Part shown: in pieces, positions 1-31,999 of the stretch
How positions within the stretch are numbered: the first letter of the stretch is position 1
Layout: every line of letters begins with the position of its first letter
DNA from: Candidatus Harpocratesius repetitus
GTDB taxonomy: Archaea; Asgardarchaeota; Lokiarchaeia; Sigyniarchaeales; Promethearchaeaceae
Assembly: GCA_021498095.1 (NCBI GenBank)
Contig: JAIZWK010000001.1
Location: 960,001 to 992,000, forward strand
Direction: 5' to 3'
DNA length: 32,000 nt
Notes under the pieces: generated by a model
What the model saw: the letters and a program-made list of their open reading frames with translations, nothing else
The model's database searches: none
What the model was told of the DNA's origin: nothing
Position numbers and translations under genes: made by a program

Positions 1-1
1 T

Positions 2-1480
2 TTTCATGAATGAAGTTAATGAAATCATTGACGAAAGACTCATTAAGTTCACTTGGTGTCCACCTGAACTCCATAAATATTTATTAAAATCTTCTTTAAT
101 CATTTCGTGGATTAATAAGATTTTATCTGCCCACTTATTTATATAATTTTTAATATTATTTGCGCGGAAAAATGTTGTTGGATTTATATTATCAATCCAA
201 TTATTTCTAATTATAATTGGAAAATTCTCTTCAATGAATTTGAATTTATTTCTCAAAGATTTAATATAATTCAAAGCTGATGGTGAATAATCTAATAAAT
301 CATCAAAAAAAGAAATAACACTTTTATATTTTCCGACATGTAAATTAAGAAATTGTTTTACTTCTTTTGCAGGGTAAGTACAAATGAATTCTAAATTAGA
401 TAATTTAAGATCTAATGAATATGGTTCTTGCAACCATTGAATAATCGGTTCACCTGTCTTTGTTTTTATTTCTTGATTTAAAATATTATTTAAGAATTCA
501 TCAGTCGGAATAATAAATGACTTAGATAAATCTTTGTTTATTCGAAAGATATATTTCATCACTTTTGGGATCATATCAGAATAATGTTTGTCAGTACGCT
601 TTCCCTTTAATAGTGAATCTAGAGCCCAAATATATCTAGTTGACACACCTCTTTTTTCTGTGGTGAATCCTATCGATAAACCATAAATTAAATTTACAAA
701 TGTAATTAGTAGTTCTTTTTGAAATTTACTGAAAATTTTTGAATTTGTTTTTGAATAAGCAAGTTTCTTAAATATTGCTAAGTCGTTATGAAAATCTTTT
801 AAAGCTAAATGAACACTTTCACTAGAATCTCTAAAAATTATTAATTTTTCTTTTTTAATTTTAAAAGTTGAAATAGGATAAAAGAATATCTCATCTTCAA
901 CAATTTTTATTGGAATAAGGTTGTTTTCATTTTGATAGGTAATATGTCCAACTCCTTTTTTAGAAACTTCATAATCCTTTAAGTATTTAATAACCATTGT
1001 TTCAGGATTTAAATTTTTATACATACTTAATAGATTTGGGTTGTATATTATATATTTGAGAACAATTGCGTCACGAAGAGTCATTCCGTTAGCTTTTTTT
1101 GGAAATAATTTCGAATTTCCACAAAGAGAAGAATCAATTTTTGGATTTTTTTTTAATTCAAGATATGGGTATCTAATTTCAGTATTATCGCGAATTGTCT
1201 TTATCATATCTTTTACTTTCGGCTCTAAGCGCGTTGAAAGTTTCTTTCTATAGAATTGAAATTTATTTTTAAAATTTTTTATATTAATAAGAAAATTAGG
1301 ATATGCAGACAATTGAATATTATTAATTAATAATTTCCTTTGATCTCTTTCCCAAATCTCCTTTTTAATTTTATATCCAAAATAAAAATGATTCCCTTTT
1401 TCTCCTAATTTTTTAATAGATATTAATGGAATCTTAATTTCTGACATATACTTTTTTGGATTTTTTGCAAAATCCGATAT
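2..1480 (-). other. AT-rich, Lys/Ile/Asn-rich C-terminal region of unknown fold (>=490 aa, continues past the window edge)
   Basis: Sampled 60-nt lines give ~13-30% GC here versus ~35-38% just above 1500. Translation switches from acidic/aromatic to basic. Confidence 0.75.
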
Positions 1481-4400
1481 TTTCGTTTGTTTTCCAGGAT
1501 CAACTACTTCAACTTTGACTACTTCTGAGCGATGTTCAGTCACATATTTCTTGTCAATCCATCGAGCTCCAGTTTCAACATCTAAATCCATTGCTCTTCC
1601 ATCAGCATAAACGCAAATTACTTTACCATACTCAAATGTATAAACCACATCAATCGATCGCCCAGTTCCTTCTCCCACACCAAATAGTGCTTGATAATAT
1701 TTGCTGTCTTGTTGAATTACCGCCTGAAAATTTTCCCCAAACAATGCCATTGCTTCCAAGAGTGCCTTATTTCGTGCCCGAATTGAAAGGTGACAGCTGG
1801 GAAAATTCATAGATGTTAAAGCTTTAGGATTAAATTTATATCCTTGAACCCGCAGTGCTTCCCGTAAGGAAGATCGCATATTGGCTTGAAGAAATTGTGT
1901 GAAAGTACCGAATAATAAAGGCTGCTGCTGTAAAGATTGCGCTAATTGTTTCAAGCCTAAATTGGTGATCATTGTCCGCATTTGCTTGATAACTGCCGTG
2001 CGTTTGGATTTTAAGAGATCATGTGTTTGATATTTGGTTCTCAAAGTACATAAGCTGGAAAAATCTTCTTTTTGCACGAACTGATCTTCCAAAGCGTAGA
2101 ATAGATTGCGCTCTCCCGAAGAAAGATAATCTTCCCCTTTGAAGGCGTTTATTTGTCCTTCCAGAAAGTCTGGAATAATTTCGGCTAAGATATTCCAAAC
2201 TTCACTGTCTCCTAAGCCGAGATGGGATAAACCGCGGGCAATAGCATCCTCCAAAATCATTTCTTGGAATACTTCTTTTCCAAACTGCCATACCCATTGC
2301 GATATGGAAAATTTATTCACCAAATCTCCGCCACTAACCTTTAATACGGCATATTCGCTGAGATATCCCATAGGATTCAGCAGGAAACTCACTCCATTGG
2401 CAATTAGAACCCCTTCCACAACTTGTTGAAGCTGTAGTTTGCGCATATCCTTCAAGATTTCTGGATCTGAAGAGGAAATTTCAGCATATTCGGTCCAATA
2501 AGCCGAAGCCAAACACATTTCGTAATAATCCATCAATCGTTCTAATGGACGGGATATGTTCCATGAAGATGAGATCAAGGGGACGACAATTGGACGACCC
2601 ATAGAATTGAGTTTAAAGCGAAAATCGGTATACATACGACTGTAATTGCCTAAAATATTCCTGATTCGTCCTTTTTCATTTGCATCCATAAAGGCTAAGT
2701 CAGAAGGAGGTGTTCCGATATTCTGCCAGTAATAATTGTAAATTTGGGGATTAATAGTGCTGGTGATGTCAATCGTAGAGAAGTCAGGAGCATCAGGCTC
2801 GGGTCGAGGGACATATCTAAGTTCGGAAAAATCATTAATATTTTGAAGGGAAACAGATGCCCCTACACAATTCCAGAAGCTTTCTAAATTACTGTAATAG
2901 GATGTGTTATAGTAATAAGGTGAAAAATAGAAATCGCGATATTTCCACGGTTTTGAGGTGTTTGTGAGGGGATCAAAGGTGGAATAATTCCAAGCAGCTT
3001 GCAGTAGATCTTGATAGAGGTTTTCTAAATGATTGTAGACAGTTGCATTATCCATGAAGAAGTGGGAATCTTTCGTAATTCCAACTATTTCATATTCATC
3101 ATATGTGCTATCATTACAAGCGATATAATTACGCCACCAGCGGTATTGAGCCAAACGTAATGAGAAGATAAATTCATATTCTAATAAATCGACCGAATTA
3201 TATCTATTAAAAATCATTTCAGGAAGTCCTATTTTCACCTCTTGGATGGAAAGAGATGGTTCGGAATCTTCTGTAGTTCCACCTATATCCCGCCACTCTG
3301 TTAAACTCCACCATAAAGAGGTATCAAAAATCGGGAGACTGGTTTCGACTACCCTTACTTGCATTACACGGGAGGAGAGAAATGGAACTAAATCTTGAAC
3401 AAATGCTTGAGTGGCATCTTGGAAGGTGTAAGGATCTTCTTCAATATCACCTAAATAATTCGGTTTCTGCAAGCCGTAATATCCATATTCTATCCAATGA
3501 TCAAGTATTTTTTCACGAAGATAATATTGATATAAGTAATTTAAGCCAAAATACATAGCAAAAGATATTCCACTTGCCGCGGGTTCAGGTAGAATAAAAG
3601 ATAATCCGGCTGTCATTAACACGTTTACTCCCATGAGAACATTATTTACCACTCGATCTAACTGATAACTCACAGAAAACATCGTAGGTGTACCGTGATG
3701 TAGTGAATCCATTCTTGCCTCATGGTCTTTTAAAGCATCATACCAAGCCATTCCATATATTTGTTCAAATCCGTCAACACCACTCAACCAATATGAAGGG
3801 AAGAAATAATCACCCGAACTGAGATAATCATCAACACCAAGATGAAGATAATGATTGTCTTCAGATTTTACGTAATAACCAATAGAATAATTTTCCGCAA
3901 ACGATTTCTCAGTAAAAATGAAACCTACATTAAATCGATTAGATCCATCCGGATCGGTCCAGTAAATCACTCCATGAGGATCGGTCAGAAGTGTATCTTG
4001 CAAGATTTGATGATTTTCACTGAAACCAACCCTGGGATCAACCATAACCTCAACATCATACTGCGGAATTACCTCTGTAGTTATGACCGTTCGATTTAAA
4101 ATATAAGGAGTACTGGAGTTAAAGTAGATAGAACCAAATTCATTGGTAATAAATTTATCCGGTCCGGAGATCATAAACGAACAATTTTCTGCCAAGCGAT
4201 TTCCCCGCTCAATCTTACCATCCCGTATTATGGTATAGGAATCATATACCCAGTAGGGATCCGCCGATTGATCTAAATCTAATCCTGCATTATCAAATCG
4301 ATCTTCACGGACAGCGATTGATTCAAAATTACCATCTCCATCTAAATCAAACGATTCAATTAATGTGGGGATTGTTTCCATCTCTGTGACAGGGATTAGT

Positions 4401-7400
4401 GAAGGACCTTCTTGGGATTGTGAAGCCGAATAAAGATCCATCTGAATGTTATAAGCAGTTTTCATTCCTGAAAAAATCGAATATAAGTGATCTCGATTGG
4501 TGAAAAACGCTTTAAACTCAGGTACCGGATCTGATACCAACCGCATCATTTGGCGTGTTTTTTTATCGAATACTCCATCACCGGTAAAATCTTGACTAAC
4601 CTCAATATATTCCTGCTCTTCATACTGCACAAAATAATGCCCAGTATCTCCCCCGTATAAATTATGGTTAAGTCCGTAGAGATTTGGGTCAGTAATCTGT
4701 GAAATAGATTCCGTGCTGTCAAATAAGACTTCATAGTCCCATTCTCCATCGCACCCAAAATCATAACGGAGATAATCCTTAACATTATTGGTAAAGTTTC
4801 CCACACCTTCTCCATCAAGAGCTAACACAGTAAGCTCATATCCATCATTCATGTCGTAATTCAGATCATATGTAGTTTGCTTCATCCAAGGAATTGTATA
4901 GGTAATGCAGCCCTCATTAATTGGTTCCCATTGAATTGGATGAACATTCCGATACCAAGCGGTCATTGTACGAGTATTTTCACGCTGTTGGGGATCAAAA
5001 TTATAACTGAAAATGGCTTGAATATCGGTTTCATATGCATCATCGGTTGTAGAATTTGGAACGGCGTAAACCGCCAAATTACTGAAGTATAGGGGTTGAT
5101 CTGCTTCATCTTGGTCCCATAATCGGGTTCCATAGAGAGCAATAGAATCAATGGAAATGGTGTCATTCGCCACTTGAAGATCAACAGTTTTAGTTTGCAT
5201 TCCTAAAGGTCCTGTAAAAACTGTCGGAAAAAGATCGAAGTGTTGGGTGACGCCATTGTTGTATGTTAATTCGAGGGCAGCTATAGAACGTTCTGTATAA
5301 AATGCCATTCCTTCAAACCCAATCCCTGTATGATTTGATGTCATAATTGAGTTGTTAAATTCGATTCCTACTGAAATGCCCACTAACCGATTACCGATAC
5401 CTGCAGATTGCAAATCTTCCCTTACTGTATTCATAATTTGAAGATTATTTTTGTTTTGAGACCAATAATGATGTGTACCGTCTGCATAATCGAAAGAAAG
5501 GGTAATGGAAAGGAAATCTTCTCCAGGAAGTACATATAAGGGAATTTCTAAATAACGATATATAACCGGGTTAAAGGACTCAAGATAAAGATCGCAAAGA
5601 TCCAGAGAAAAGTTATAATTCGGACTAATATCTCCTTCAATCGAAATGACATTCTCATCATTCAAGATGTCCCTTTTCCAATTATACGTATCAAAAGAAA
5701 GCATGGATTTATGATCACCTAATGAATCCACCGACCAATTTAAATTAGGAGCAGGAATGGTAACATGTGATTCATCAATTAAAGCATGAAGATCATTCAT
5801 CGTGTTATCTAAATTAATATCATCAATTAGAGGATGGGTGTATTTATCATCCCAGTACATTACTGTATCTAAATTCGAGCGATAAAGATGGAGATAATCA
5901 ATCGACAATACGTTTTTAGTTTGATGGATTCTATAGTGCACATTAGGATTCTTTGCACTAAAGGCAATTCTCACTCCTTTAAATCCTACGTATTTTCCGT
6001 TAGATGTAATTAAGAAGCGAGATAAGTCTGATTCAGATAAGACAACTAGATCATCATAAGTTTCATAGGATATTCTATTGGCATAATAAAGATTTCCTTT
6101 CACTGAAGCGACTGTTATCCATGAATCACCATTAAAGAATTGCAGCGAGGCATTATTCCAATATACTGTATTCTTTTTGTCTGCGTTTTCAGGATCCCAC
6201 ATGGAAACAGTGAATTTTGCATCAATATCAATTCTATTAATGCAGTTCATATCAATTGGAGTAAAGGTCATGTCAACTGTGATGGTTGTATTAACATCTC
6301 TTTCTTCCGACCTAAATGTGAAATTCTGAGCCAGATTGTCGTTTTTAACTTTTAATTTTTGAATCAAGTCTGATGTTTCTACAGGTATCATATCTTCTGT
6401 ATTTGAAACTGTTAACCCTGTAATTGGAATTTCTTCAGATATATATGGAATATCGGCCATTTCTTCTAAATTATGACCATCAGCATACCGTGGAGCATTC
6501 CAATCGGTAATGACAAAATCACGGTCATTTGGCCCAAGATTGTAGGAAAGAGCGGCGGAATAGGTGTAATTCAAGGTAGGGTCTTTAGGTAAAATTACAG
6601 GATTCATTAAAGTACTAATACCGTTGGCAGTCGAAGAGAATGAAGCTGAAATTTGTCCCGTAGATAAGGTTTGATTCCATATCGAAGGCATTACCAACAA
6701 GAAGATTTCTCTGGTTTTCAAGGGTGAATCATCAATAACATTATGAAGAACGGCACCTCCGTCATATGGAATACGTTTAACGTCGTAAAGAGAGATAAAG
6801 CCGTGATATATTATAGGCTCGGTAATGGAACTTAAGACTTTGGGATTAATTTTCAGACTGGTTACCCCTTTTCCTACAGAATCTTTAGGAGAAAATTCTC
6901 CAAATGAATCGAAATTATCACCTACTGCATTCCCACAAGCATCGCTTTCGTTATACCACCGCCAAAGGTTTTCTTGTGTGATAGTAGGATAATCCCATCC
7001 GTTTTCTTCATCAAAACCGCTCCAAAAATAAGAATGTTCATCCAGCATGGTCATAATTTCTGAAAGTTTATGCACTCCACTAGTAACGCTGGAAGGATCA
7101 TCAAGTCGGAGATAGTAATCGTTGATGGCCTCATCCCATTCAGAGGGGTTAGAAGTATTGGTTATTCCGAAATCAAAACCGTTTTCTATAAAATAATGTA
7201 AAAAGGAGCGACCAAAGACTCTTTCTCGTAAATCATCAGAATAAGCGGTTGGAATGGAGATAATATTTGTATCACCGGTAATGTGTCCGCGTTTTAAAAT
7301 GATGGGTGTAATAGAAGTCCGATCGCTATCAACGACAGTGATATTCCAACGCAAAAAGACCTGCTTACTCCATAAAGATTGGGCAAATACATGGGAAAGA

Positions 7401-10400
7401 TCAACGAACCATCCTTTTATATTCGATCCCGTGACACGATCTGATGCATCAATGGTATAGTTCAACCATTCAAAGTTATCATCATTATCCACCTCAACAG
7501 CATATAGTTGAATATCAACTTGCAAATTGGAAGGATCCCATGAATCAGTTTCAGGAATATAAATCTGCCAATCGATCTGTCCGTTATATGGGAGAAAGAT
7601 TGCAGGTGGAGTGAAGAGCAGTGATTCATTATACCGCAAGCCTAAATACATGGCATCTTCCAAAGTATAATTTCCAGTGTTTGTGTAATTATAAAAGGCG
7701 GCGGTGCGAAATCCATGCAAAGGATTAGCATTATCACTATAGAATTGATAACCTTCCAGAATTTGCGTTGTTAAAGGTAGAGAGAAGGCTTGTGAGATAT
7801 TCCAATGATGCTGTTCAACTGTGAAAAGATGAGGAAAGTTGAATGTGGCATTAAATGTTGCATTTTCGTATAGACGCCAGTTGAACATAGAAGAACTGGA
7901 GTGAATAAGGAAATTTAAATTATCAGAATGAATGTCTACATTAATTAAATCATTAACATTATCAGCACCAATTGAAGCACTAAATTGGGGAACTGCACTT
8001 TGAATTGAGCCGTTTAGATACATCCAATCTGAAGGATCGTGATTACTATTAATTTGTTCTAAAGCTGTTCCTAATTCTTTACCGAAATACCATACATTAT
8101 TGTGATCATAATCATTCGATTCTGTGAGGGTTAAATTACAAATGGTAATGTTGTAATTGGCAAAAGGTCGGTATTCTTCCCAAGTTTGATTGATTAAACT
8201 TTCATAATAATCAGATTCATAAAAAGCGGTCCAATTTTGATCCCCACTAGCATTAAAGATATTAAAATGCTGTGTTTCATTAAGATTCCATTCAGGGTCC
8301 ATATCGAACTGATAATGAAAACTAATGTTAGTATTGATTCCATCCATCCACCTAAATTCATATTCAAAGGGTATTGATTCATTCCAAGCTGAAGCATTAT
8401 TAATTTCAAAGGAGACTTGGGTGGGACGATTATTAACCCACAATTCTAATGTAATACTATCAGTAAAGTTGTAATTTTCATTAATGAAAGCATCACTGGA
8501 TACAACAAGATCTCCCGATAAAACGGGATAATTGTAATTGTAATATCCTTTACTGATATCTCCAGTAGCATTGACCAAATAGGCATTGCTGTATCCTTCG
8601 GAATCATGAGCCAGATCATTTAAGGTATAAAGATGGGTCACTGAATCTAAAGTATATGTCTCGGCTCCTTCTACTGTTAAACCTGTATCGACACTCCTAT
8701 AAGTGGCATTATAATAGCGGGATATCACCGAGACTAATTGATAATTCAAAGAATAATATCCAGGTAATAAACGATCTAATTGTGGACCTGCTGTTTCTGG
8801 AGTATAGACAAATTCTGCAATTCCTTGGCTATCAGTTTGGAGTATATAAGGGACATATCCCGTTCCATTCCAATAGCCGTCAATAATTTTCTCAGTTTGA
8901 TCAGAATCATACAGATCACACTGGATTAAAATTTGACTAGAAGCATCCAATCCAAAACGGCTTAAGAAATTATTAGCATCTAAATCTTCTGCAATTCCTT
9001 CTCCTGCTTCGGTATCCGTTTCAGCCACTGCGGCAAAAACGGAGAAATTGGCTGTTGTTACGGGCATATTCGCCGTTACCAATGTAAGATCTTCTGGTTC
9101 TATTAGTAGAATTCCTTCGATAGCAGTAGAGAGATAGCATGGATCAGCATATATTCCATCTGCATAATTAGAACTTTGAAGAATGGGAACTGCATCATCT
9201 GAATCATATATGTATTTTTCGTGATCAAACAATTCTGTTTCGTAAAGTTCTCCTTGATATTGGAAAGCGGGAATCTTCATATCATCAGCATTCCATTGAT
9301 CTGCATAGAAGATTCTAACATACAGCGGTACAGATGATACTGAATCAACAGGGATGTGGGTGATTTTCTCATACAGATCACAAATATCATATAATACATC
9401 TCCCTCAATCTCGAAATGGGCAATACCCTCAGCATTCGTCTCAGATACATCGTAATACAATGGAGCGGTCCACTTATACGTCTGTGTATCTTCTTCAAAG
9501 AAAGGATACAAAATTGGTCGATCCACCAACCCTTGAGTATAATGATGGAGCTGCAAATTGGCTGGTGGTTGTATATCTTGGTAATAAAGATATTCTCCAA
9601 AGCACGAACCCAAATCTGAAGTGAAATTATCCCTCCACGGCCATTCAGGAACGATGGATAAGGAAAGCCAGACGGGTAATTCTGGTGCATTATATCCTAA
9701 GATTTCATCTGTCATGCGTACGTCGATAGGAATATTATCGGAATATTGTACGGTCAAATTCAGTAAATTACCTGGTGAGATCCATGTATCAGCAAATTGG
9801 GAGCGGGCATTCATAGTAATTTCTCGAGGTTCAATCTGCAAAGTAAAAGAATGCGCTGTAGGGAAATAATGAGAATTTCCGCTAAAATAGGTTCTCATTA
9901 AGTATTGACCTGGAATTAGATCAAATGTGCTTCCAAAGGTTGAATCAAAGTAGAATTGGAATAAATTATTTGTAATTAACTCGCATGTTTGGATTGTTTT
10001 CCACATTTGATTATCCCAAATTTGAAGTTGAATAACATTGGAACTGAGATTCAAAGTCCGATTATACACCCAATTATTTCCTTCGTTAATATAGAAAGGA
10101 GTTTCATTATATTCGGGAATTCTTTCTAATACCAAATCCACCCCTCCTGCAATAAAAGAATCCGCTGTATTAAATGGAACAGGAAGGGTTAATGGATCTT
10201 GATCAGTTAAATAATAGATAGAAGCATTGTGCCGCTGTAATATAAAGGATAAATCAATAATGTCTGAAGTAGGGACAAAAAAGGCATTACCTGAATATTT
10301 AACCCGAAAATCTGTATATTCATCAGATCTACCGTATAAGATAAAAGTATATGGAGTTTCCATGTGTTCAGAAACAGCTATGCCCAAAATTACTTCTTCA

Positions 10401-13400
10401 TTCCCATGATTAGCCACTATTTGGAAGGAATCTAAAGTATCAATGAACACTTCTTCAGGGATGGCCGGGGAAAAGTGAAAATTCGTCATATTTACATACG
10501 TTCCTGTTATAAAATCAGAGACATCAAAGGTGCAGTCTGTCAAGTTCACAGAAATCGGATTGATTTTGAGAGTAGCCGTATTGAAACATGAATGAAAATC
10601 ACCAGAATGAATTGAAATATCAAGATTAAGATGATATATGCGATTATCTATCCCTTGAGGGAGTGTTTCATAAAAAGTGGTGGCGTTATTGAGAAAATCA
10701 ACGAATTTTATTGAAGTAATTCCGAAAAAGTAATTTGCATAAGTCGGGTTTAATACTTCAAAATGGGGCATAATAGTATTTGGAACGGCTCGAATAGAGA
10801 TTTTCTCGGTTAAATTCAAAATGTAATTCGGATTAAATGCCGCAATTTTAACAAATGGAACAAAAAGTTTCAGCTTCCGTAATAACATATCATTATAAAG
10901 ATATAGGCTGGGAGATTTCGTAATTAAAGACACAATATCTTGAGTATCAAAGGTATACACTGCAGTTTCAGTAACATTTCCAGTTGTATATGAAAATTCC
11001 ATTACAAAACTTTTAAAAATGCTTCCAAGATCGGGTAACCAATTATCAGGAATCACAATATTGGCTGATATACCTTCAAATGAAGCATTTATCCATTCAA
11101 CATTTGAAAAGGTGAAACCTATTGTATCTAACGCAGCTAACCCTCCATAGTAAAACTCCATTGAAGTTGAAATATCAAGATTAGGATCATAAAGATTTCC
11201 TTCAGAAAAGTCAATATTTGATATTGAAGTAATACTTACATTAGATAGATTTCTCAGATCTTGCGAATATAAGAAGGCGGAATCTATTGGTATGGAGAAT
11301 GATCCATTATTTCCTGTTTTTACTGTTTGATAGTTTAAATTATCAAATTGAATATTTACTAAAGAATTGGAAGGTAATGGTTGATCGTACTCATCAAAAA
11401 TATTACCGGTAATGAAATCTGCATAATGAACTTCAAGATTCTCCGATGAATTATAAATCACATGATAATTTTGATTAATTCGGAGAGATTTGCTGGTGAT
11501 TAATTCTTCATTTCCTGCTTTATCTTGCGCCCAGAATTTTAAAACCAAATTGGAAGAAGAAATCATCGGGATTTCTTGAAGTAAATTCCAAAGGTCAAAT
11601 CTAATTTCTTGAGAAGGATTAGCAATCTCTGTTGAAAGAAGAATTACATTTGATTCATCCCATAGTTGTAAGTTGAATGAACTTATTGTATTTTCATCAT
11701 TCAAACTAAAAATCAAAGGAGTTTGAGCGGAAAGATCAATAAATATTCCATAATCATGACTATAAGTTGAATTTTGTATCCAATTCGAAATTGGTGCAGT
11801 TCGATCTATAATAATGGATTGAAAGCATTCTCCTGTATTGCCATCGGAATCTTCAAGTGCTGCACGAAGTGTGACTAATCCTTCAGGCATTCCAACAGAA
11901 TATGAATCGATGCTTGCAGTATAGTGATTATCACCTGTAGAAAGAGTATCTGTTAATACAGGATAGAACGTGACATTGTCTTGAGTCCATTCAATAGTTA
12001 TTGAAGATAAATCAGTTGAATAATCCACAATATTAATAGCGAATAAATCTCCGTATTCTGGTACTTGATTATAGGGAATATTGTAGAATTCGGGATGGGG
12101 TTTGCTGATATCTAGTGATCCAAGCATATATTTCTCGCAGATAGTGGTATTCGTAATGTTGTTGATCATTCTCAGTCGAAGATTTACGATTGCTTCATTC
12201 GGCTGCATTACCATCACACTTCCATCGTCAAAAGCAAGATCTTCCCGACCGTTACCATCAAGATCTCCGAGAGCCAAATTATCAACAGGATCTTCCCGCA
12301 AACGTTCCATTTCTCGATGATATGTGACTGCGGTGGCGGTTACAAAATTATCTTGAATGCATGAATGGGTTAAAACGATGGGCTCTTTGCGCATATTGAT
12401 CATGTAAAATGCGGTTCTTATATAGCCCGTGATTACCATATCCCCATCCGATGAGTGAACATATTCCCCAATCTGATTGGAAGAGAATAGGTTAGCACTG
12501 ATATCAATTGAATATATCAAATAGCGGTCCAAACCATTTTCCGAAAGAACAGACTTCAGCATTGGTTTCACGGCAAATTTTACAGGCATACTGCTGTATT
12601 GGTTGTCGAGATACAATTCTACTTTTGGTTCAACTGGAATCACTAAACGAGGATCGCTGATATTAATCGCTGAACCAAACCCTAAAAGACTTGCATTAAC
12701 AATCAGATCGAACTGACCATGAATGTTGATGGTATCCCACTCACTAAGATCAAAATCGTAACTATTTCCCAACACAATCTCGAAAGCATGATGGTCTTCA
12801 TCGTAATTTGCAATTTGGGTAAAAATTGGTGTGTCTGATTCAGATCGACACCGAATCGCTTCTATATAAAGTGTATCGAAATCAATTAATATTAAATTGG
12901 CTAAATTGGTACCCGCTATAGATGATAATTCAGCAAGATAATTGTTGTGATCGATGATCAACCTCATTGTGAATTGATATACTCCTGGAGCGGATTGATT
13001 ATCTTCACCAAAATTCTGCCAATTGTCTGTTGAAAAGTAGTATTCCAGATTGACCATATTATTAAAATAATTGAGGGGATTAGTGATGGACATATCATGC
13101 CATACTCCTTGATGATCCCGAATTTGTAAATAGGTTTGTTGATTGTTAGTATTCCACCAATCTATTTGAGGAACATCACGTGTATTAAAGGCATTTATTC
13201 CAGAATAATAATTAGTTGAATGCGTTATTGAATCCCAGATATAATCTCTTAGAATTCCATTTAAATTATATTTAAGAAATTCTAATTCCGAAAATGTAAT
13301 ATTCAAAGCATTTGTATCAAGATCGATTGTAAATTCCTGCACAAATTTCGATTCTGAATTTTCATTTTGATTACCAAAATCTATCTGAACTGTGCTGGTT

Positions 13401-25400: not shown

Positions 25401-28400
25401 CAAATCCCGTTCCCCTCCAGATAAAATTCGGCATAAATTGAAACCATTTGGGGATCTAGATCGACAATAGGTGTAAGAATAACAATAGGATGGTTATAAT
25501 GGGCGGAAAATTCAAAAAATTTGTATGAAGAAGTAATTCCAGTCCAAACCCCCATCTCCATAGCAAAGGAGGTTATTGGTATGCAAGAATATGATGATGA
25601 TGAATTGATCACAAGGTCAGGATGAGAAAAAATCATATCGAATTCATCGGGATCCGCATAAACCGAAGGTAATGTAAATTCAACAGTAATCTGCAATTCA
25701 ACAATTCTCATCCCCAACCAAGGAGTTAGGTCAAATATCCATGTTTCTAAAGTGCTATTTTCAGAAAAGACACCTTTGGCGACTTCTGTTTCGTTTACCA
25801 TAATTTGATATGCACCGGTGGAATCGAGCGATCCTGCGGGTAAAACTGATGAATTAATGAAGCCCGTTAAAGAAATATTCCCATATATGCAAGAACTCGT
25901 ATCATAATCGGGAGCATAAATAAATGAGGTAGAAGCGGTAGTTCCTTGAGAACCGGTGCGCAGGCCCGAAATGCCCGAAATTATATAGCCGTCATTAACT
26001 ATTGTAGTGTTTAATGTTTGAGATGAAGATGAGAAGGTCAGATCTTGCCATTGATTGAGATGTTCGGCTGAAGACCAAGATGCAAGGTAGTTCATTTCTA
26101 TTTTAATTGATCTGAATGCGAAAAACCAAGAGTCGGGAGTTCCCCATGTAGTATTGTAAAAACCCGTGTTGAATATCATTTTAAGCCCGAGATAAAGTCG
26201 GGTGGATCTTGTATATGCAGAAGAAGAAAGAGATACGTTGATATAATTAAATGGTGAGCCTTGTGAAAAGGTGATCGGGATTATCTCGAGGATGTTGTGG
26301 TTCTCATCGTACATGACCGCTTCCAGCTCAAATGGTGTATCTCCAGGAAAGTCGTAATCATCATGAATTTCCCTAAAGGTCTTCATATTTAAGCTGATTG
26401 TTCCATTGAGAATATGTGTCGCAGGAAGGAAAAATGAAGGCGAAATAATAGTAATTTCTCCATTTTCCCCAGTAATTGTTCCATAATACATACAATCTTT
26501 TGCATCCCAAACATCATGGAACATGGATGGGTTAGTCTGCTCGTAAATCGTCCAACCATTATATCCTGTTGTTCCTCCTCGCCATGACCAGGCCCTAACT
26601 AAATTAGTAGTGGTGGTAATTCGAACAGGATATTCGGGATCACCTGAAATCTGCCCATCTTCATCAATACTCTCAGGAATTTGATAATCGAATTGATCAT
26701 AACGGTGAACCGCATCTAAAATATCGGTCGCTACGCAATCACTGTAAAACTCGTTTCCATTCCAAGAAAATTGAGCAATTGTAGTTAAAGGAACGAAGCC
26801 GGAACAATTTGTATATTCGAAATATCCAAAAGCGTTTGTTTGAAGATTAGTAAGGAACAGATATTCTCCGCCAATGTATTGCGAAAGGCTTACATTTGCA
26901 AAAGAAATCACCCGATTTGTATAAAGATCTTTCAATGTTGCGCGAAACACATTTTTAAATTCATCATGTGTATTAATAGAAATAAACCCTGCTGATGTCC
27001 CTTTTTCAATGGGGAAAGTAAAATGCGCATGAGAGGGAATGACCCTTATTGAATACTGTGCGGAACTATTATACGGGACATAATTCCAAATGTCACCAAC
27101 AACGCTAATCTGTACATAATATAGTTCATTAACAACATATGATTCATTACTCAAGCGCTCGGGATCCATTGCAAACGTAACGCTGTGCGATCCCGCAGGT
27201 AAACTTGCTCGATAGACATCCATCAACACATCATCACTGGCTCTTCGAATCTCGACGTGGTTAACAGTATCTTGATCTGTAGTCCAGGTTATATTCAATT
27301 CATCAAACACATGAATTCTGAATTCTGTGTTATTATAGTTCCATCCTGAAAAACCAGAATTTTGACCGTATAAACATGATAACTGCACATCAATGATGGG
27401 ATTTGTATTTGATGGAAGAGCATTAACATAAAAGAATGATGAATAAGTACCCATACAAAAAACGAAAATAAAGATTGCCCAAAATGTTACTCTTCGCTTC
27501 TTTTTGCGAATATTAAAGACTTTCTGGCCTACCAGCCAAATTCCTGTTATTAATAGTATGAATAATAATGTACTACCTATATCTGGACTGGGTTTAAAAG
27601 AACTTAATGGAAGAGAATCCTCTATAGAATTGTGTAAAATGTGGGGGATGATTGATTCACGTGTAGAAATTTGTCCGTCAGAAACGGTCACTTCCAACAC
27701 ACTTGCATTGTCTGTAATAAAACCTCCTAAAATGGTAAAATTCATCAAAAACGATTTTTCCTTAACCATTCCTAAAGAGAATAAAGAACCTTCATACAAT
27801 TTCCGCTCTCCATACCGTATTCGAACTGTGGAATTTGGCAAAAATTCGTAATCCGTCGCAACGATTTTGAAATAAGCTTTCTTATTTGGTCGAATTTCTG
27901 GAGTAATCTGAATAATATCAACTTCGGGGCGCTTGTTTTCCATTACATTAACAATTACTTGTTGATGGGTGCGGGTAACATCAGGAGCTTCTACAATAAC
28001 ATCCAATACATTAGAACCGATTGGAAATTTACTTGCATTTAAGTTATAGATAATATCGGTTGTTCCTGTATAATTGGCAACCATCAATTCAGAACCGTTA
28101 TATAGAAGATGGAATCTGCCGAAATCATTAGCTCGATCAATAACGCTAAAACTAACATTTACGATTTCCCTTTTATCTATTTCCATATTCATTGGTGAAA
28201 CCAAGCGAGGTGCTAAGTTTTCAACAATTTTTAGATCAACTGATGAATATATATAACCTATTAACGGATCTTCATAACGGAGCATCAATTCATACAACCC
28301 TACATCCCAAGAACTGACATTTAATTCAATTCTGCTGTTAGCTGGAGACGAAGAAATAATAAAATAATTTCTGGTTATAGAATCGTTTAAAATAATGGAA

Positions 28401-30976: not shown

Positions 30977-31999
30977 TTAAACATATGGATCAGGAAGTAT
31001 TACATATTTAATAAAACCGTAAGAAGTATCTTCTATCTGTTGATTGAATCGGAGATACAATTTAGTTTTGGTCTGATCGAATCCATATGCGATTCCTATA
31101 TTAAATCCTTTTATTCTCATATCATTCACTAATTGTCCAATAAGTTCATCCATTGCGGTATTATTTTCGATTTTTTTAATTTCTATTGCTAATTTATCAT
31201 CTATAGTGATATCTATATGAGATCTTCCACATAATCTTGGATGTAATTTAACATTTTGAAAATGTTTCGTTAATTCTTTGACAATTGTAGGATTTATTCC
31301 AGTATCTTCATTAGGTAATTCATTTGGAAATAGATCTTTTATTGGGAGATCATTCAAAATTTTAGCCACTTTATTTAATAATGGATCTATAAAGTTAGGT
31401 ATTTCTAATCCTTTCTTTCTCCTATCCGAAATTAACATCTGAATTCCCTTTTGAGAACCAATGTCTTGAAATCTCTCTTGACTGCTTTTAGCAATTCTTT
31501 CAAAAATACTTCTTAACACAGGAGATTCTGATTTTTTTATGTCTTCAAGGATTTCATGAAGAATGTGAAGCGATTTTTGATAAGTTCGATAACATTCATT
31601 ATAAGAATTTGTATTTACTAAATCATTTTGCAATTCAGGAATATCTTGCCATTTTTTAAGCAAGATCAAAATTCCTGATGGAAGATCTGACTCATATTCT
31701 TTTATATCATTTTTCAGCTGTCTGCAGTGTTTATTTATAGTTTCAACAGTATCAGAAATTAAATATATAAGATCTTCAATAATTTTCCAAGTAGGTTCAC
31801 ATGAATGTTTTTTAGCATATTTTTTCTCATAATTGCCAAATAAATTAAATAATTCATTAAATAGCAATTTGACTTTTCTAAACACTTTTTTTTCTATTTC
31901 GATTCGAATTTTATGCTGCAAAATATTGATTTTTAATTCTTCTTTTTCTTCTTCCGAAGTACTAACCGTAATCGCTTTTTCGTTGTAAATAATTACTTT
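30977..31999 (-). CDS. PD-(D/E)xK restriction-endonuclease-fold protein with helical N-terminal region; 5'-partial (>=340 aa)
   Basis: C-terminal CGRSHIDITIDDKLAIEIKK...DELIGQL has the D...IE-x-K catalytic pattern. The frame stays open upstream of the track's TTG at 31921 to the window edge (KVIIYNEKAITVSTSEEEKEELKINILQHK...), so the true start is outside the window. Confidence 0.8.
   Translation of the reverse strand, partial: KVIIYNEKAITVSTSEEEKEELKINILQHKIRIEIEKKVFRKVKLLFNELFNLFGNYEKKYAKKHSCEPTWKIIEDLIYLISDTVETINKHCRQLKNDIKEYESDLPSGILILLKKWQDIPELQNDLVNTNSYNECYRTYQKSLHILHEILEDIKKSESPVLRSIFERIAKSSQERFQDIGSQKGIQMLISDRRKKGLEIPNFIDPLLNKVAKILNDLPIKDLFPNELPNEDTGINPTIVKELTKHFQNVKLHPRLCGRSHIDITIDDKLAIEIKKIENNTAMDELIGQLVNDMRIKGFNIGIAYGFDQTKTKLYLRFNQQIEDTSYGFIKYVILPDPYV

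Follow-up and report, generated by a model that had tools for sequence, protein, structure and literature searches.

Contact-dependent toxins of the polymorphic kind feature prominently in the social life of bacteria, and little is known of them in archaea. No group is more closely related to eukaryotes than the Asgard archaea, in whose biology cell–cell contact plays the dominant part. Polymorphic toxin systems are said to have been defined by Zhang, de Souza, Anantharaman, Iyer and Aravind in Biology Direct in 2012, and an archaeal survey of these systems, by Makarova and co-workers, reportedly appeared in mBio in 2019. Our literature searches turned up no published description of a polymorphic toxin system in Asgard archaea. 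Giant open reading frames (ORFs) in Asgard genomes are already on record, where they are listed without architecture or function (2022, PMC8813620). Cultured relatives of the host studied here live in tight cell–cell consortia and, in place of an S-layer, bear complex proteins on the cell surface (PMC9834061), and in Thermococcales a gene module for a hypervariable immunoglobulin-like (Ig) protein has been proposed to have a role in conflict or in self/non-self recognition (Makarova et al. 2021, PMC8416519). Here, we describe a giant gene of Candidatus Harpocratesius repetitus, a member of the Lokiarchaeia, which fills most of a 32,000-nucleotide (nt) stretch of its genome (contig JAIZWK010000001.1, positions 960001-992000; ‘the window’). 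Sequence comparison suggests that this gene probably encodes the delivery protein of a Lokiarchaeia polymorphic effector system, in which toxicity and delivery are predicted properties.

The ORF lies on the minus strand at window positions 2..29254, where it runs for 9,751 codons from an ATG start and is open at the left edge. The frame extends 1,054 nt beyond that edge, to contig position 958946, so that the window encodes aa 1-9751 of a protein of 10,102 amino acids (aa; contig 958946-989254); the last 351 aa and a downstream partner gene lie outside the window, to its left. No ORF of its genome, which is one contig of 4.36 Mb (31% GC), is longer, and the runner-up (4,296 aa) is less than half its length. 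Colinear relatives, of ~23-31% identity, came to light when related genomes were searched in six frames, and they are confined to the same archaeal family. Three of them are intact giants of 9,739, 7,593 and 9,599 aa, all in one closed 6.04-Mb genome, and further ones are present as fragments in four draft genomes. All relatives have the same order of parts: a lysine (Lys)-poor trunk, a hairpin, a glycosylatable domain, a third helix and a Lys-rich tail. A word-indexed protein search with the trunk end returned no relatives in the giant length class, and an exhaustive HMMER search with aa 8952-10102 against 1.84 billion representatives returned seven proteins, mostly the host's own paralogs or fragments of them.

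In the mechanism that we propose, five N-terminal transmembrane (TM) helices would tether the protein to the producer cell and a glycosylated stalk of ~7,900 aa would project outward. The C-terminal end would carry a membrane-active module (hairpin, glycosylated domain, third helix, amphipathic helix) and a conserved segment referred to here as the handle. An exchangeable effector tail of ~850 aa would follow a V-D-P motif, ending in this protein in a putative restriction-endonuclease-like domain, and cassettes elsewhere in the genome would donate tips or swap them through recombination within the handle. Delivery can be pictured in two versions. The C-terminal module could be a free distal end, which inserts in the target membrane and passes a part without glycosylation sequons (N-x-S/T) across; alternatively, the module could first span the membrane of the producer, with the partner protein holding the tail inside until a later release.

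This design resembles polymorphic toxin systems in its large surface protein, junction motif, variable tips and co-varying downstream gene, and also in the orphan tip-plus-partner cassettes, the recombination at the junction, the putatively deaminase- and nuclease-like tips and one neighbour with a SUKH domain. It differs from them in that the giant protein is without TPS, RHS/YD, PAAR, LXG, HINT, PT-TG and VENN and has a multi-pass N-terminal anchor and a non-repetitive stalk of 7-9 thousand aa. The tails are of 600-1,000 aa here versus 100-300 aa and sequon-purged, the partners are mostly leucine-rich repeat (LRR) proteins of 230-680 aa and the orphans are dispersed. The CdiA/CdiB (type Vb) system likewise has a filamentous surface protein with the toxin in C-terminal position behind a short motif (VENN there, V-D-P here), a membrane-inserting region before the toxin, and orphan CT/immunity modules with 5' homology for tip replacement. 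In contrast to CdiA, the giant protein has no TPS domain or FHA-1/FHA-2 repeats according to Pfam and NCBIfam, has no CdiB partner and shows no sequence similarity, and it belongs to a single-membrane archaeal envelope. Because the comparative signature is present and the known trafficking and pre-toxin domains are absent, we file the family as polymorphic-toxin-type and not under CdiA, Rhs or another named family. As the chassis lacks the domains of known delivery systems, its membrane-active module may work by a mechanism of translocation that is new.

Moderately hydrophobic helical hairpins and acidic amphipathic helices beside a cargo bound to cross a membrane are also found in the T domain of diphtheria toxin, the pore-forming domains of colicins and self-translocating toxins of the MARTX type. 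The analogy is functional only: there is no detectable sequence similarity, and the AlphaFold model of membrane module plus handle (predicted local distance difference test, pLDDT, 46; predicted template modelling score, pTM, 0.25) is too poor for fold comparison. The Ig module of Thermococcales is similar in being archaeal and in combining a large surface protein with variable genes located downstream of it, but it represents a different family, which is not giant and is without a fused sequon-free tail, handle/V-D-P or LRR partners. The aloposon giants, tandem genes of 3-6 thousand aa in mobile elements of Heimdallarchaeia, do not belong to the family either.

Support for the polymorphic-effector reading comes from checks on the sequences of tails, partners and orphans. 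In alignments of the relatives, homology stops at a [VILM]-[VI]-D-P motif, and 20 of the 24 members have this V-D-P junction in conserved form; the giant protein has V-V-D-P at aa 9250-9253 (V-D-P, window 1496-1504). Its tail, assigned to class A, comprises 849 aa with 12% Lys (aa 9254-10102), of which aa 9254-9751 are encoded in the window (2..1495, minus strand; Lys 12%, no sequon). The 23 tails of at least 100 aa fall into 11 BLAST groups and at least eight classes, mostly mutually unrecognisable. In a maximum-likelihood tree of the trunk end and module, class-A tails, including that of the giant protein, occur in both major clades, and a single clade for them lowers the log-likelihood by 123 units (approximately unbiased test, p=0.0002). 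In one genome, two sister modules bear unrelated tails (G013). By its trunk end, the giant protein stands nearest to a protein of the same genus whose tail is of class D and to the 9,739-aa relative, which has a tail of yet another class; by its tail, it matches the 9,599-aa protein. An earlier note, made from the letters of the window alone, had proposed a swappable C-terminal effector and, as a check, a comparison to see whether the C-termini of homologs are unrelated to each other; for most of them this is what we see, a shared module up to V-D-P and divergent tails thereafter.

Among the classes, profile comparison (hhalign) linked A, B and D only, and these through their terminal domains, at ~89% probability; with shallow alignments, it gave no link for classes C, E, F and G, the G010a tail and the deaminase-like tail. 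The uniform length of ~840 aa had raised the idea that all tails are one deeply diverged family, which hhalign on these shallow alignments did not support. The class-C tail searched against 5.8 billion proteins matched only paralogs from this genome, and Pfam recognized no families in nine further tails and the class-C orphans.

Of the 22 family ORFs complete at the 3' end, 19 are followed, within ~230 nt, by a co-directional ORF. The partner of the giant gene, outside the window, starts 215 nt after the stop in the same direction and encodes 457 aa with no hydrophobic segment, probably a cytoplasmic LRR protein. Taken alone it is sub-threshold (LRR_4, 18.3 bits versus a cut-off of 27), and BLAST links it to paralogs (E 1e-36 to 1e-43) and to relatives (1e-6) that exceed the LRR_8 threshold, with scores of up to 158 bits. 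A single LRR cluster takes in 14 of the 20 partner ORFs that were compared (LRR_8 up to 158 bits). The partner family co-varies with the class of the tail. Class-A tails are accompanied by LRR proteins of 457, 371 and 366 aa, which are 32-40% identical; the four ~80-83%-identical copies of class C by a family of 316-337 aa, 82-90% identical, and the distant class-C copy (25% identical) by a 412-aa member of that same family (~30% identical); the class-D tails of two genomes by proteins of 349 and 332 aa (28% identical, E 7e-44). The 457-aa protein would be the cognate binder of the tail, most likely its immunity protein. A predicted complex of the terminal domain with this partner scored 0.00 and has no weight either way. 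The earlier note had suggested looking for a small immunity ORF directly after the stop: a co-directional, class-matched gene is indeed there, but it is not small. The four class-A pairs of this genome (the giant gene and the cassettes at 1.521, 1.631 and 4.186 Mb) all have a distance of 203-226 nt from the stop of the tail to the LRR start, and this consistency suggests a conserved intergenic element.

The distribution of sequons sets the tails apart from other proteins of the cell. In this genome, ORFs with Lys below 4% have 1.75 sequons per 100 aa (observed/expected 1.49), and those with Lys above 7% have 0.62-0.69 (observed/expected 1.00). C-terminal of its third helix the giant protein has no sequon versus 7.7 expected, and the same region has none in four other homologs. 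In total, the 23 tails (15,590 aa) contain 2 sequons versus 125 expected, whereas the adjacent partner proteins contain 57 versus 58 expected. A blind screen of the genome for ORFs with at least five expected sequons detected seven that have none, and six of the seven are family tails. A protein that never meets the oligosaccharyltransferase lacks a reason for losing sequons, which suggests that the purged region is at some stage outside the cytoplasm of the producer. We infer that the region beyond the third helix must cross a membrane, either that of the target or, on release, that of the producer, in an unglycosylated state. The purge would be a new kind of sequence evidence that the cell treats one part of a protein differently. 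The seventh, non-family ORF of the screen (contig 4076740-4078770; Lys 1.8%, 0 sequons versus 7.8 expected) carries PPC, two Big_7 and caspase (Peptidase_C14) domains.

At least nine tail-plus-partner cassettes without a trunk are dispersed over the chromosome of this genome. Some start with the handle (contig 1521083-1523959, 2262098-2264950 and 2914583-2917531), the last of these lying just 3' of a 397-aa remnant of a membrane module, and others consist of tail sequence only (at 1.631, 4.186, 4.145, 2.796, 3.121 and 0.049 Mb). The ~125-aa handle of the giant protein (aa 9126-9253; window 1496..1879, minus strand) extends from a conserved Met to V-D-P, and this Met (aa 9126, window 1877-1879) is the start position of the orphan handle-plus-tail genes. 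A tract of 374 nt in the giant gene (window 1531..1904, minus strand) has 92% nt identity to the 5' end of an orphan (contig 1521058-1521431). It begins 25 nt before the orphan ATG, and eight codons separate its other end from V-D-P; its edges are sharp, the sequences being unrelated upstream and ~33-48% identical at the aa level downstream. The high identity of this sharply bounded tract between divergent flanks leads us to infer a recent gene conversion at the cassette junction. In the source sample, the graph of short-read unitigs is interrupted within the 92% repeat, and the contigs showed no joints of the trunk to other tails. Orphan tip cassettes, which the earlier note had suggested looking for to the left of the window, thus exist, one of them with the 92% tract, but they are scattered over the genome and not directly left of the window.

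Two further observations concern these cassettes. Met9126 is conserved within most giant homologs, and an internal translation start at this position, giving a free handle-plus-tail product, is a possibility. In the class-A orphan at 1.521 Mb, an in-frame TGA (contig 1523960-1523962) lies 30 codons short of the end position of the giant protein, so that the terminal domain is without its conserved W-W-x-N end.

The terminal domain of the giant protein (aa ~9805-10102) lies outside the window. Its structural model (pLDDT 68, pTM 0.71) was compared by Foldseek and by an independent all-against-all aligner (VIA), and the top structures are nearly all PD-(D/E)xK nucleases, among them Can2, BsaWI, R.BspD6I, TnsA, Bax1 and Vsr, with modest scores (at best Z 7.9, Foldseek E 0.013). 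Residues D9876 and E9890 are conserved on adjacent strands; the x-K position is occupied by Leu, and a conserved K9908 follows ~18 residues on. These matches hint weakly that the tip may have a PD-(D/E)xK nuclease-like fold. A signalling domain in this position, named in the earlier note among the findings that would contradict an effector, was not found; the matches are to nuclease folds instead. A Protein Atlas feature search with the terminal domain gave no usable match. Weak profile matches to the domain at contig 62443-63108 (E 2e-7) and 3084908-3086314 (E 3e-3) suggest that a wider family of it exists in this genome.

A different chemistry may apply to the tip of the 7,593-aa sibling. 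It matches PF14424 (Toxin-deaminase) at 24.0 bits, below the cut-off of 29.6, with the P-C-x-x-C zinc motif present as PCRSC, and its nearest clusters in language-model features are also PF14424 toxin deaminases (0.93). The gene that follows this sibling encodes a SUKH-1 domain (39.8 bits versus a cut-off of 25.4) fused to LRRs. SUKH is the classic immunity family of polymorphic toxin systems, reportedly described by Zhang and co-workers in Nucleic Acids Research in 2011.

Several observations weigh against toxin delivery. The nuclease-fold match is too low to exclude a generic alpha/beta sandwich, with the canonical (D/E)xK lysine displaced, and the deaminase match is sub-threshold for Pfam, its H-x-E motif reading D-T-E. 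The partners are large (230-680 aa) and mostly LRR proteins regardless of tail class, many tails are uniformly ~780-850 aa long, which is unusual for cassettes of unrelated toxins, and the orphans are intact yet have no export signal. Class C, with its four similar copies and distant fifth, looks more like an expressed gene family than a set of silent cassettes, and the join of the trunk to the tail depends on how the closed assembly resolved the 374-nt near-identical repeat. The hairpin plus one helix moreover predicts an out-to-in crossing, so that the tail could sit in the cytoplasm of the producer, and its Lys-rich composition agrees with this. Such a location is the essence of the alternative already raised in the earlier note, a giant adhesin or receptor whose tail is permanently cytoplasmic; the LRR protein would then be an adaptor for signalling or cytoskeletal coupling, and the orphans soluble paralogs. 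The predicted helix count (N-in, C-in), a tail as rich in Lys as the cytoplasmic proteome of the host, soluble partners without a hydrophobic segment, orphans without signal peptides and uniform tail lengths are all in its favour. We nevertheless consider it unlikely. Cytoplasmic proteins keep sequons at chance level (1.00), as do the partners, whereas the tails have lost nearly all of theirs, and this purge weakens an explanation that continues to fit composition and helix count. No positive-inside bias follows the third helix (the analysis found none on either side of it, which does not settle the topology), tail classes have been swapped between trunk lineages, and one sibling combines a toxin-deaminase-like tip with a SUKH-domain neighbour.

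Polymorphism, partner co-variation and surface display would be equally expected if tail and partner were identity markers for self/non-self (kin) recognition, licensing or blocking fusion, bridges or cooperation with no killing involved. The consortial life of the cultured relatives (PMC9834061) and the similar role proposed for the hypervariable Ig modules of Thermococcales (PMC8416519) are in line with this idea. Recognition determinants are, however, expected on the exposed glycosylated part of the protein and not on a sequon-free, cytoplasm-like tail, and the deaminase-like and nuclease-like tips together with the SUKH domain point to toxin-immunity chemistry; kin recognition thus seems improbable to us. 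We give even less credence to the view that the cassettes are autonomous two-gene toxin-antitoxin or defence-like units, selfish or defensive, whose fusion to the giant gene is incidental. The many stand-alone pairs, the multiple copies of class C and the intact orphan ORFs with their own conserved start speak for it, but all complete giant homologs examined carry such a tail behind the handle and the V-D-P junction, several orphans keep the handle or remnants of the membrane module, and purely cytoplasmic modules would leave the sequon purge unexplained.

Under the polymorphic-effector reading, which we prefer, the tails would be toxic, exported and neutralised specifically by their cognate partners, the tips would act as nucleases or deaminases, and delivery would need cell contact. 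The giant family would offer a concrete and testable system for cell–cell conflict in Asgard archaea. A bolder version of this reading, which we put forward tentatively and regard as rather doubtful, takes the sequon-free zone for the polypeptide that is threaded through a bilayer into another cell. The protein would then be a self-contained megadalton translocation device, which delivers both the fused tail and separately encoded, handle-bearing cargo. If true, this would amount to an Asgard-specific injection of proteins into syntrophic partners or competitors and would be relevant to the cell–cell intimacy invoked for eukaryogenesis, and sequon depletion could flag translocated effectors generally in N-glycosylating prokaryotes.

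The C-terminal membrane module begins with a hydrophobic helical hairpin split by PEP (aa 8536-8578; window 3521..3649, minus strand, as for all parts of the giant gene below), which is kept in all homologs. The 364-aa inter-helix domain that follows (aa 8579-8942; window 2429..3520) is Lys-poor and has seven sequons, one of which, at aa 8899-8901 (window 2552-2560), is conserved in most homologs. The third hydrophobic helix, ‘TM3’ (aa 8943-8966; window 2357..2428), is moderately hydrophobic and rich in Gly and Asn. Next comes a conserved acidic amphipathic helix, E-x-F-E-E-h-h-L-E and then G-x-s-x-G-L-A-N-x-L-G-E (aa 8992-9037; window 2144..2281), which in this protein reads E-V-F-Q-E-M-I-L-E-D and is followed by a linker and the handle. 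An A5 run lies in GTGCAAAAAGAAG (window 2057..2077) and is one A shorter in another assembly. A 476-aa database protein (97% identical), from the same or a near-identical organism, reads ...DQFVQKKIFPAYVL-stop at this run: with the loss of one A, the frame stops 10 codons later, truncating the protein between the third helix and the handle-plus-tail part. The difference could be a homopolymer sequencing error in the other assembly or a real on/off variation of the tail.

At the other end of the protein, a Lys-rich segment, presumably cytoplasmic (aa 1-59; window 29078..29254), precedes TM helices 1-3 (aa 60-150; window 28805..29077; Kyte-Doolittle peaks of 2.0-2.7). The first extracellular loop (aa 151-557; window 27584..28804) has 11 sequons versus 4.4 expected, and hydropathy places TM helices 4-5 on both sides of a KKKRR cytoplasmic loop (aa 558-610; window 27425..27583). 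The ectodomain trunk (aa 611-8535; window 3650..27424) is acidic and non-repetitive, with ~2% Lys and 138 sequons. Its sequon density, 1.74 per 100 aa, is typical of the Lys-poor class of ORFs of this genome, and the trunk is presumably a glycosylated extracellular stalk. It contains a long coiled-coil insert (aa ~2200-3200; window 19655..22657), whose matches are confined to SMC/Rad50-type coiled-coil models, and a Big_7 Ig-like domain (aa 3672-3732; window 18059..18241), which is the sole globular Pfam domain above threshold in the giant protein. A comparison of the trunk with PDB sequences by phmmer gave no matches. We rejected an RTX- or Bap-type repeat adhesin as a description of the trunk, which has no internal repeats except for the coiled coil. 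Up to aa ~9000 the protein has 1-3% Lys and a net negative charge, and beyond this point Lys rises to 11%; GC is 25% in window 1-1000, which encodes part of the tail.

The anatomy read by the earlier note from the letters alone stands in part. The N-terminus with five TM helices, the coiled-coil and Ig modules, the switch in composition towards the C-terminus and the hydrophobic helices near it, which prove to be conserved among homologs, were all recovered; lectin-like and FG-GAP modules found no support in Pfam, NCBIfam or PDB sequences. That note had also seen none of the usual trafficking domains, and our searches of the whole protein agree: TPS, RHS/YD, PAAR, LXG and HINT had no match in Pfam and NCBIfam at E<=0.1. 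Its guess at an archaeal origin was correct, with genes for TFIIB and a four-subunit pyruvate:ferredoxin oxidoreductase downstream of the giant gene and a host whose archaeal family has members with closed genomes, one of 6,035,313 bp and one of 4.3 Mb.

Two more distant or decayed relatives were noticed. A weak match in another family of the same order is an ORF of 14,557 aa (G290:C47:30000-49000) of the same overall design, in which a Lys-poor, sequon-rich trunk is followed by a hairpin, a helix and a Lys-rich, sequon-free tail of ~1,900 aa; it is without the V-D-P motif and without a co-directional partner gene. In the present genome, a degenerate relative of the trunk end (contig 1335767-1338991) is 30% identical to aa 8300-8712, is interrupted by one TGA and one TAG and has downstream a Lys-rich stretch that is sequon-free from aa 451 on. 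The giant gene is preceded on its 5' side by two ORFs that match no Pfam family, one of 314 aa (window 30977-31921) and one of 375 aa (L005:8-1135), and by a DDE transposase gene (L005:1280-2587).

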